Source of the DNA: a virus | Lineage: Duplodnaviria; Heunggongvirae; Uroviricota; Caudoviricetes | DNA length: 64,000 bases | Reading direction: 5' to 3' (one strand) | IMG/VR virus record: IMGVR_UViG_3300042009_000026 | Coordinates: 128,001 to 192,000 of that record | Part shown: positions 7,240-9,438 of the stretch, piece after piece | Numbering within the stretch: the first letter of the stretch is position 1 | Layout: every line of letters begins with the position of its first letter | Notes under the pieces: generated by a model | Database searches by the model: none | Told to the model about the DNA's origin: nothing | Seen by the model: only the letters and a program-made list of their open reading frames with translations | Program-made: the position numbers and the translations under genes

Positions 7240-7288
7240 CGGCATAAAGCCTCCACCCGAAGGTGGAGGCAATATGTTATTTTTTTTA
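7240..7288. terminator. Bidirectional terminator-like hairpin between convergent genes
   Basis: CGGCATAAA-GCCTCCACC-CGAA-GGTGGAGGC-AATATG then T run. Confidence 0.8.
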
Positions 7289-7753
7289 TCTCGTCTGACG
7301 ACTCATGTCACGAATTTCTCGATCCATGTCACGCTTCACGCGTCCTTGTTCATCTACCTTACGCAGCATATCCGATTCACCTATTTCCAAAATGAATGTG
7401 GCTTCGTCATAAGGAAGTTCTTTAAACTCATTATAACTAATGCCCCACTGTTCTTTAACATTGTAACGGATGTACTTACGCATTAGCGAACGTACTGCTC
7501 CACCTTCCACCGTATCTTCTTTGTCGAACATACGTACAACATCCAGAGGATGCTTAAAGTGTTCAGGTGGACGAATACCATAGTCGTCTATGTAAGCTTC
7601 ACGCAGAAGTATCTCTGCGGTTGATGGTCTTACGGCACCCATCTCAGCATAAAGCTTATCTAGGCTGCCCCCACGGGGGCGACGCTGATGGCCGAAGCTA
7701 TACTGCGTCACGTGTCCGTTGGGGTCAGATAGATCTACTGACAGGCGTGTCAT
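7286..7753 (-). CDS. Conserved phiKZ-like protein, possible tail/baseplate assembly chaperone C-terminal partner (may be reached by -1 frameshift)
   Basis: 155-aa ORF; WGISYNEFKELPYDE resembles chaperone-type C-terminal motifs; no clear SD. Confidence 0.7.
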   Translation of the reverse strand: MTRLSVDLSDPNGHVTQYSFGHQRRPRGGSLDKLYAEMGAVRPSTAEILLREAYIDDYGIRPPEHFKHPLDVVRMFDKEDTVEGGAVRSLMRKYIRYNVKEQWGISYNEFKELPYDEATFILEIGESDMLRKVDEQGRVKRDMDREIRDMSRQTR

Positions 7754-7776
7754 TTGTGGGTCTTTGTTGCGATGAC

Positions 7777-9438
7777 CTACTGGTTGACTTTCTGGCCCGC
7801 CAAGGTAAAAAATGTCGATACGATATCAAGAGGGATCAAGTGATCGAAACGTTCATGGAACTTCTCGGCCATTGGAGATTCACATACTGAACAATTCCAC
7901 GAAGGAATAGCTACCATGCACAGAATAGTATCGTCAATGAACTGCAGTACGGCTGCTTCGAAAGCAGAGGCGTACTTCTTATCCGACATTACGTTGGACA
8001 GGTATTCATCAATGACTTCTTCGTTCTCAGTCAGAAGCTCTTCAGTAGAATTAGCATCTTCACGTTGATAGATAGCGTCTACCCAATGTGAGTACTGCCG
8101 TGCGCCCGTGATAGCCCCAAGGCGATCGATATAAGCGTTACGGTTAGCATCACCAGGGGCTTCGTTAAAAGCACTGTGAGAAGCATCTACTACGCCGTCA
8201 ATCCATCTGTTGCCAGCATCGCGTCGCTCAGCAATCGAAGGTACACGGAGACGAATGCCAATATCATCAAACCATTTGATAGGCTTTCGACCCAAAGTGG
8301 TGTCTTGTGCATATTGATCCAATTCCTCTGCTCGTAGTTGACGACCGAATCGAACGTGCAGCAAATCCTTCTGACGTTCTACCAGTTGTGTAATATCGAA
8401 CCAGGTAAGCGAGAACATGTCCAGCTTAGCTTCTTCTACATGGGTACACTTGGATGGATCAGCGATGCATGTATGGCGGTAGTTAAAGCCACCAGGATAC
8501 ATTGTCGATGCTAGACCGTGATGTAGGATAGGCTCATCCAATGCAGACAGACGATGCTCAATGTCACCAGGTGAAGTAGCTACCATGTTGGTATGGGTTA
8601 CACATTGCAAAGCTAGATCAGTCAGAGCGTTGTTATAAACAGCGATCCGATTAGAGAAGCCTTGGCCTTTAGTAGCACGACCCAAATTAACTGCAACGTT
8701 TTGCAGACGTTGAATCATGTTAGCTACTTCGGTATTCGTTGGTGTACGCAGACGAATCCAAATACCAGTGTGGGGCATAGGGAATTCGTGAGTAGCACCC
8801 ATACCCGATTTACGAGTCAGGTATGCCAACATATCGGACTTAGCCGGTTTGTCAGACAGTTTGATCTTCGGACGAGATGGACCGATCTTACGACCGTTGT
8901 GTTCAAAGAACTGTATCCACTCAGAACCTTCACGATGCGTAGCACGACGCGGTGTAGTGTTCATGTCGACGTGTTCGATGGCCGACTGGAGTGTCTCTAG
9001 CCATTCGAGGTCGCGTTGCTCTGTGGTGATCTCACCGCCTTCGATATCAGAGAACAAGCGGTGATGCACGCGCAAGATCTCTTCGAAAGTTTCAGGGTTT
9101 TCACGCATCAACGAAATGATCGCAGCTGTGGCTGGAATCTTTTCAGAATCGACTGGTCGGTCAATACGGAAATTTACTTTTGGTTGTTTAGGAGTAAAAG
9201 GTACCAAGACCTCTTCATCTCCACCGTCAACAGGTTCATCATCTTCTTGGGCGAGCTTATCCGCCAGCTGATGAACGTTCAGCGGTTTAGCTACCGGATC
9301 GGTAGCCTCCAGTGTAACATTACCTTGGTCATCAGTAGCCTCGTAAGTAGGCGTACTGATGTTTTGCTGGAAATGTACTGCCAGAGCAGGATCAATTTCT
9401 TCAGCGAATTCTTCATCATCTTGGATTTGGTGATTCAT
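7777..9438 (-). CDS. Conserved phiKZ-like core protein (gp77 position), possible baseplate-hub/tail assembly chaperone
   Basis: 553 aa; duplicated IRLR(T/V)P motif, Cys pairs (CIADPSKC, CSVC), FF near the C-terminus; function inferred. Confidence 0.75.
   Translation of the reverse strand: MNHQIQDDEEFAEEIDPALAVHFQQNISTPTYEATDDQGNVTLEATDPVAKPLNVHQLADKLAQEDDEPVDGGDEEVLVPFTPKQPKVNFRIDRPVDSEKIPATAAIISLMRENPETFEEILRVHHRLFSDIEGGEITTEQRDLEWLETLQSAIEHVDMNTTPRRATHREGSEWIQFFEHNGRKIGPSRPKIKLSDKPAKSDMLAYLTRKSGMGATHEFPMPHTGIWIRLRTPTNTEVANMIQRLQNVAVNLGRATKGQGFSNRIAVYNNALTDLALQCVTHTNMVATSPGDIEHRLSALDEPILHHGLASTMYPGGFNYRHTCIADPSKCTHVEEAKLDMFSLTWFDITQLVERQKDLLHVRFGRQLRAEELDQYAQDTTLGRKPIKWFDDIGIRLRVPSIAERRDAGNRWIDGVVDASHSAFNEAPGDANRNAYIDRLGAITGARQYSHWVDAIYQREDANSTEELLTENEEVIDEYLSNVMSDKKYASAFEAAVLQFIDDTILCMVAIPSWNCSVCESPMAEKFHERFDHLIPLDIVSTFFTLAGQKVNQ

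Follow-up and report, generated by a model that had tools for sequence, protein, structure and literature searches.

A 64,000-nucleotide stretch of a Caudoviricetes genome (IMG/VR virus record IMGVR_UViG_3300042009_000026, positions 128,001 to 192,000; hereafter the window) carries on its minus strand a gene of the phiKZ gp77 family, followed by a small open reading frame (ORF). We propose that this gp77-like locus is subject to programmed -1 recoding, from which both a short protein of 553 amino acids (aa) and a long protein of 717 aa would be made, and we put the probability of this reading, which is drawn from sequence comparison, at about 0.8. We infer that the slippage is ribosomal and of low efficiency (a few per cent). 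The recoding signal, seen across the family, extends a known mechanism to a new protein family. An earlier note on this DNA, made from its letters alone, had put the frameshift forward as undescribed, and this agrees with what we found: no frameshift is annotated in 23 public phage records, and our literature search on gp77 of phiKZ and the Chimalliviridae, or on PHIKZ076.4, found no description of one.

On the minus strand, the 3' end of the 553-aa ORF reads ...TCG ACA TTT TTT ACC TTG GCG GGC CAG AAA GTC AAC CAG TAG. The run of six T residues (T6) at 7812-7807 forms two in-phase frame-0 Phe codons, TTT TTT; the frame-0 stop follows nine codons past the run, and the -1 frame runs for 173 codons. 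The downstream 155-aa ORF is offset by +2 relative to the 553-aa ORF, which places it in the -1 frame. This frame is closed by a TGA at 7828-7826, just upstream of the run, and from there is open across the run and on to an ATG at 7753. The earlier note had given the same terminal codons for the 553-aa ORF, the same positions for the run, the TGA and the ATG, and the same frame, and all were confirmed from the sequence; the fusion product, which it had put at ~715 aa, computes to 717 aa (544 + 173; 81.8 kDa, against 62.6 kDa for the short form). The predicted tryptic peptide spanning the frame junction in this phage is FDHLIPLDIVSTFF-YLGGPESQPVGHR. The run at the slip site exceeds chance expectation, since only three runs of at least six T occur on the minus strand of the window, the T6 run is the sole run of five or more T in the 553-aa gene, and few of the Phe codons of the gene are TTT (7, two of them at the slip site, against 15 TTC).

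The frameshift is strongly supported by comparison among relatives. Our junction set comprises 38 distinct loci, the window included: 23 annotated phages from more than 15 genera, five further close IMG/VR relatives, and 10 loci from metagenomes, with gp77 homologues of only 26-44% identity. It spans phiKZ, PhiPA3, 201phi2-1 and Goslar, together with Erwinia, Salmonella, Ralstonia and Vibrio phages and metagenomes. The sequence layout is conserved throughout the family. A run of five to eight T (T5-T8) stands at the homologous Phe-Phe codons in 38/38 loci, the next ORF lies in the -1 frame in 38/38, and in 38/38 no stop interrupts that frame between the run and the extension; alignment of the junction in related jumbo phages, which the earlier note had suggested as a check, thus recovered both the run and the open -1 bridge in every case. 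In the window and all 23 annotated records, the run is the only one of at least five T within the last 80 codons. The extension measures 145-188 aa in 36 of the 38 loci, the exceptions being RVTF4, where the record contains an indel, and one locus at a contig end. Searching with HMMER, we found the 553-aa family in 1246 clusters at 50% identity, the best 150 of which all end within ~15 residues of the end of the query; therefore, the early frame-0 stop after the run is also conserved. F543 and F544, the residues encoded by the run, are two of just seven invariant columns among 77 sequences. Natural in-frame fusions were found neither among longer proteins, in a weak search, nor by the lengths of the 150 best family representatives. 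The small ORFs of the distant phages RP12, Goslar, Eowyn, PhiEaH1 and RSF1 are structural homologues of the 155-aa ORF.

The simplest reading of the mechanism is ribosomal -1 slippage of tRNA-Phe. Most ribosomes would read UUU UUU (7812-7807) in frame 0 and stop nine codons on, giving the 553-aa protein. A minority would slip back one base on the U-run, with tRNA-Phe re-pairing with UUU in the -1 frame and UAC as the next codon, and would then add an 18-residue flexible linker and a 155-residue helical domain to give a 717-aa protein that shares its first 544 residues with the short form. In this clade, some free 155-aa protein may also arise from the ATG at 7753. In the heptamer A_UUU_UUU, A-site re-pairing would be perfect and the P-site would retain two of three pairs; many relatives carry a perfect U_UUU_UUU, or U_UUU_UUC. 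What is particular to this phage is the shorter T6 with its imperfect heptamer, along with the ATG gained by the downstream domain. Slippage at AAA (in CAG AAA GTC) was rejected, as tRNA-Lys would fail to pair with GAA, the codon of the -1 frame, and the motif lacks conservation.

The same protein sequence (...FFY...) would result if the slipping machine were the phage RNA polymerase, adding one U on the T-run so that a fraction of the mRNAs would encode the fusion in frame. Bacterial RNA polymerases slip at lengths of 7-8 T, as in Thermus dnaX, Shigella mxiE and insertion sequence elements, and some relatives in our set have runs of 7-8 T; the search for an RNA stimulator of ribosomal slippage, described below, came up empty, which also speaks for this explanation. 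Against it, the run is no longer than T5 or T6 in the window and in at least 14 other loci, lengths on which known polymerases would not slip efficiently. Moreover, the 3' end of the run is fixed in codon phase, and lengthening occurs only 5'-ward, into a perfect X XXY YYZ heptamer. Because the phase of the run and its 5'-ward growth into a heptamer matter to ribosomes and not to polymerases, we favour the ribosome and regard transcriptional slippage as an unlikely account of the locus; it could contribute where the run has 7-8 T, and is unlikely for T5 or T6.

A further question is whether the 155-aa ORF is simply an ordinary second gene, translated solely from the ATG at 7753, in which case the T-run would reflect conserved Phe codons and the -1 phase an inherited packing of neighbouring genes. 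The ATG is present and is kept in the wider clade, where relatives at 66-89% identity all begin with MTRL or MSRL; two genes are annotated in the public records; and the Phe-Phe pair is conserved in the protein, T4 gp26 having a pair near its own C-terminus without a T-run. No Shine-Dalgarno (SD)-like motif lies within 18 nt upstream of the ATG, in line with the earlier note, which had seen no recognisable one. This is a weak point, because about one third of the crude ORF starts in the window also lack such a motif.

The ATG at the start of the domain is, however, confined to this clade, and outside it the homologous position is no start codon. The Met of this phage is replaced by Y, Q, H, S or A in phiKZ, PhiPA3, PS119XW, Phabio, Noxifer, 201phi2-1 and Viktualia. 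Between the run and the FG motif that is conserved in the domain, we found no ATG, GTG or TTG in phiKZ, Phabio, SA002, Ea35-70 and at least seven metagenomic loci (at least 11 loci in all); for LucasX and Moabite no start codon is listed either, with a crude FG anchor that is doubtful in these two. The small-ORF starts annotated in relatives are internal ATGs, with gaps of -1 to 116 nt and a truncated domain, and were picked by annotators because a start codon is missing at the start of the domain.

Constraint on the nucleotides points the same way. The Phe codons at the slip site are TTT in 42 of 47 cases, compared with 31% TTT elsewhere in these genes (p ~1e-16, with relatedness ignored). 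Among eight close relatives, 3 of 16 third positions are variable at -12 to +36 around the run, compared with 58 of 76 (76%) upstream (Fisher p = 2.5e-5). In the same eight, the bridge between run and domain contains no indels and no stops, and the substitutions in it are either synonymous or conservative when read in the -1 frame; the 23-nt spacer that would be termed 'intergenic' is likewise free of indels and stops. A relative that is 59% identical keeps GGPESQPIGH while TTG replaces the ATG 'start'. The slip site and frame arrangement thus appear, from the pattern of synonymous constraint, to be conserved beyond the needs of the protein. An ordinary pair of genes leaves unexplained why TTT is preferred, why synonymous sites are frozen, why the spacer is free of indels and stops, why the bridge is conserved at the amino-acid level (GGPESQP[VI]GH) and why the phase is -1 in 38/38 loci, and we consider it improbable. 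Independent initiation may nevertheless coexist with slippage in this phage, since in its clade the domain begins with an ATG.

Several points weigh against the frameshift. The case for this phage and all of its relatives is built on comparing sequences, and the statistics above ignore phylogenetic non-independence. Part of the conservation of the run is protein constraint, since the Phe pair is conserved as protein residues and T4 gp26 also ends in ...FFELL. The heptamer is imperfect in this phage, where the P-site tRNA would re-pair with AUU, and the ATG at 7753 would allow the downstream domain to be made without slippage. In RVTF4 the downstream ORF (L003:4431-4894) is broken by a one-base indel ~40 codons past the ATG, and what remains is read in a different frame, owing either to an error in sequencing or to a domain that is broken in this phage. 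Finally, we found neither a conserved stem-loop downstream nor an SD-like stimulator upstream. For 11 Pseudomonas-phage junctions, RNAalifold gave only a 4-bp consensus (-1.0 kcal/mol), and a long-range stem in the window, which starts 3 nt past the run, has a shuffle z of only -2.15 and is not kept in RVTF4. Many phage frameshift sites lack stimulatory elements.

Published proteomics of phiKZ offers an indirect hint. In Grad-seq of pooled samples from 10-30 min of infection, PHIKZ076.4 has a value of 9.08 for the log10 of iBAQ (intensity-based absolute quantification), compared with 10.7 for PHIKZ077, or ~2.4% (PMC10914614, Suppl. Table 1). Although annotated as only 80 aa, PHIKZ076.4 is missing from fractions 1-2, the lightest, and peaks in fractions 4-6 of the glycerol gradient, away from small free proteins; the peak of gp77 is in fractions 3-5 and that of the 164-aa gp78 in fractions 2-3 (PMC10914614). 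Both abundance and sedimentation fit a minor, large trans-frame product. The support is indirect because the peptides are unmapped and a complex would behave alike.

We compared predicted structures for clues to the function of the two products. The AlphaFold2 (AF2) model of the 553-aa protein has a predicted local distance difference test score (pLDDT) of 84.8 and a predicted template modelling score (pTM) of 0.83, and residues 539-552, the frame-0 tail, form its C-terminal helix. Four near-invariant cysteines (324, 331, 516 and 519; window 7880-8470; PCxADPxKCxHV and CPxC) probably constitute a zinc site. When we searched BFVD with Foldseek, the jumbo-phage homologues were followed by ~20 proteins of ~250 aa whose names mark them as baseplate hub proteins of the T4 gp26/gp51 type (assembly protein, subunit or chaperone; E 3e-5 to 1e-2; probability 0.99-1.0; template modelling (TM) score 0.46-0.59 on the target; predicted structures on both sides). 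For neither model did a solved structure match above noise (PDB via Foldseek and VIA wide), and the PDB matches of the C-terminal model were generic long helices. The extension is modelled (pLDDT 80.8) as an all-helical domain with a 40-residue terminal helix, following a disordered linker of ~18-19 residues; the bridge has a pLDDT below 50. In BFVD, its sole matches are small ORFs of other jumbo phages, located after gp77 homologues.

The 553-aa protein thus shares a predicted fold with T4 gp26/gp51, and the C-terminal two thirds of the gp77 family show the motif order of gp26: a Cys pair, a beta-hairpin, CPxC and a C-terminal FFxL. Both gp26 and gp51 carry CPxC. Tests at the level of sequence gave a different picture. 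PF12322 (T4_baseplate; gathering score 24.5 bits) had no match to the 553-aa protein, its genome or five other chimallivirus genomes, and matched one of 77 relatives at E 1e-3, whereas the positive control on T4 found both genes at 215 and 178 bits. An hhalign comparison of the 77-sequence profile with the single T4 sequences returned short matches with probabilities of 24% (gp26) and 9% (gp51). Because these sequence-level tests fail, we do not count gp77-type proteins as members of the T4 family; they may be distant structural relatives of gp26/gp51 with a role resembling hub assembly, as the models suggest. They also differ from the T4 proteins in being two to three times longer, and in that the second T4 product, gp26', arises by internal initiation. 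T4 gene 25 (L024:7405-7803) lies in the -1 frame of gene 26 (L024:7803-8429). A frameshift in T4 gene 26/25 was ruled out, as the codons there are TTC TTT, followed immediately by a TGA in the -1 frame.

Among documented cases of recoding, the locus most resembles lambda gpG/gpGT and P2 gpE/E+E', in which slippage by -1 at a short homopolymeric or heptameric site, close to the 3' end of a gene related to morphogenesis, gives an abundant short product and a minor one that is extended at its C-terminus. The two products have a common N-terminal part, and the layout is kept across very divergent phages even though the sequences are not; P2, too, slips on a T6 run. The gp77-like locus differs in protein family, size and genomic position, in having a linker and a helical domain as its extension, and in being known from sequence. 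T7 gene 10 (10A/10B) and Escherichia coli dnaX (tau/gamma) similarly use a -1 frameshift near the end of the gene to make two proteins with a common N-terminal body at a set ratio, and tRNA-Phe likewise acts on a U-run at the T7 site, G GUU UUC. In dnaX, by contrast, the shift shortens the protein and needs an upstream SD-like element and a downstream hairpin, neither of which we found conserved here. That the pair is itself a lambda G/GT- or P2 E/E+E'-type tail assembly chaperone (TAC), with short and long forms coating the tape measure and recruiting the tube protein, we consider highly improbable: the strategy of expression is shared (slippage by -1 close to the 3' end, with a minor extended form as its product), a tail or baseplate role would be compatible with a T4 gp26/gp51-like fold, and residues ~190-323 (window 8470-8870) align to 3klu (YqbN), 3fgx and 2ob9 (HK97) at Z 3.3-4.5 in VIA wide, but these matches sit below the noise level of the tool, the protein has 553 aa against ~100-150 for TACs, no TAC model of Pfam or NCBIfam matches it at E <= 1 or any of 77 relatives at E <= 0.01, and the gene lies among head, RNA polymerase and helicase genes and not between tube and tape-measure genes.

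The identification of the pair as a tail or baseplate chaperone in the earlier note is therefore borne out as far as the predicted gp26/gp51-like fold goes, and fails for the G/GT and P2 types in family, size and position. Of the comparisons that it had suggested, the one with T4 gp26/gp51 showed a resemblance in predicted fold. Since the fold resembles that of T4 gp26/gp51, we place the likely role in the baseplate hub or tail, and the two isoforms would probably act in a fixed ratio in its assembly. Tentatively, and holding it somewhat less likely than not, we suggest that all nucleus-forming jumbo phages make a gp26/gp51-like factor under obligatory -1 frameshifting, that the long isoform is the sole source of the helical domain in most of the family, that the ratio is essential for tail or baseplate assembly, and that this might be a second, independently evolved G/GT-like system in another protein family.

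The features of the locus are collected in Table 1.

Table 1. Positions of the gp77-like locus and its surroundings in the 64,000-nucleotide window.
Feature	Position	Strand	Remarks
Frame-0 gene, 553 aa, 62.6 kDa	9438..7777	minus	ORF read from sequence
Proposed slip site A_UUU_UUU	7813-7807	minus	Frame-0 codons ACA TTT TTT, then ACC
TGA closing the -1 frame	7828-7826	minus	Just upstream of the T6 run
Dual-coding overlap	7806-7777	minus	Frame 0, TLAGQKVNQ-stop; -1 frame, YLGGPESQPV
Bridge, 18 codons of the -1 frame	7807-7754	minus	YLGGPESQPVGHRNKDPQ; predicted disordered linker
Downstream ORF, 155 aa	7753-7286	minus	Proposed C-terminal domain of the long product
28-nt block	7818-7791	minus	TCGACATTTTTTACCTTGGCGGGCCAGA; invariant in eight close relatives
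Upstream gene, 219 aa	10101-9442	minus	Same operon; phiKZ gp78-like; phrog_14050; function unknown
GC-rich hairpin, 9-bp stem	7249-7270		Operon end

The virus record containing the window is 317 kb long with terminal repeats. Among cultured phages, it is closest to the jumbo phages Psa21, D6 and RVTF4 of Pseudomonas syringae, with which it shares 73-81% nucleotide identity in the region. The 553-aa protein belongs to the family of phiKZ gp77, PhiPA3 gp074, 201phi2-1 gp136 and Goslar gp081 and matches phrog_4585 (E 1e-132). The 155-aa ORF belongs to that of PHIKZ076.4, PhiPA3 gp073, 201phi2-1 gp135 and Goslar gp082 (phrog_12109). Searches of Pfam, NCBIfam and PHROGs with both proteins returned only PHROGs of unknown function, and our literature search found no genetic or biochemical data on gp77 homologues. 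Several proteins called 'gp77' in the literature were set aside as different proteins, namely an RNA polymerase subunit of PhiPA3, a capsid decorator of Goslar and a small terminase of PCH45.

The order of genes is the same in all relatives: a gp79-like head protein on the opposite strand, the gp78-like gene, the gp77-like gene, the small ORF and the hairpin. Upstream, the neighbours are gp78-like, the gp79-like head protein and the gp80 RNA polymerase subunit; downstream, they are small ORFs, the gp75 helicase and the gp74 RNA polymerase subunit. The stem of the hairpin is a perfect 9 bp and stands between the convergent minus-strand operon and a block of small plus-strand ORFs; it is probably a terminator in both directions. 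A macro-domain gene comes immediately after the small ORF in Goslar and in four metagenomic relatives (L018:3082-3642, L035:3110-3553, L036:3290-3766, L038:3052-3537, L041:3464-3904).

The gp77 family is Chimalliviridae core gene cg18, which is labelled 'hypothetical protein' in the core-genome table (PMC10299810 supplement). A core gene common to all Chimalliviridae thus carries no more than this annotation, and the frameshift offers a concrete, testable handle on its function. If our reading is true, the locus is mis-annotated in every genome record of the family, with the downstream domain called from arbitrary internal ATGs, and a protein species of ~80 kDa would be missing from proteome databases, knock-down designs and interaction screens. 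For annotation pipelines, the arrangement would supply a clear rule applicable to hundreds of jumbo-phage genomes. It would also be one more example, shared by a whole family, of recoding that sets a ratio in phage assembly, here in genes other than the classical tail-chaperone ones.

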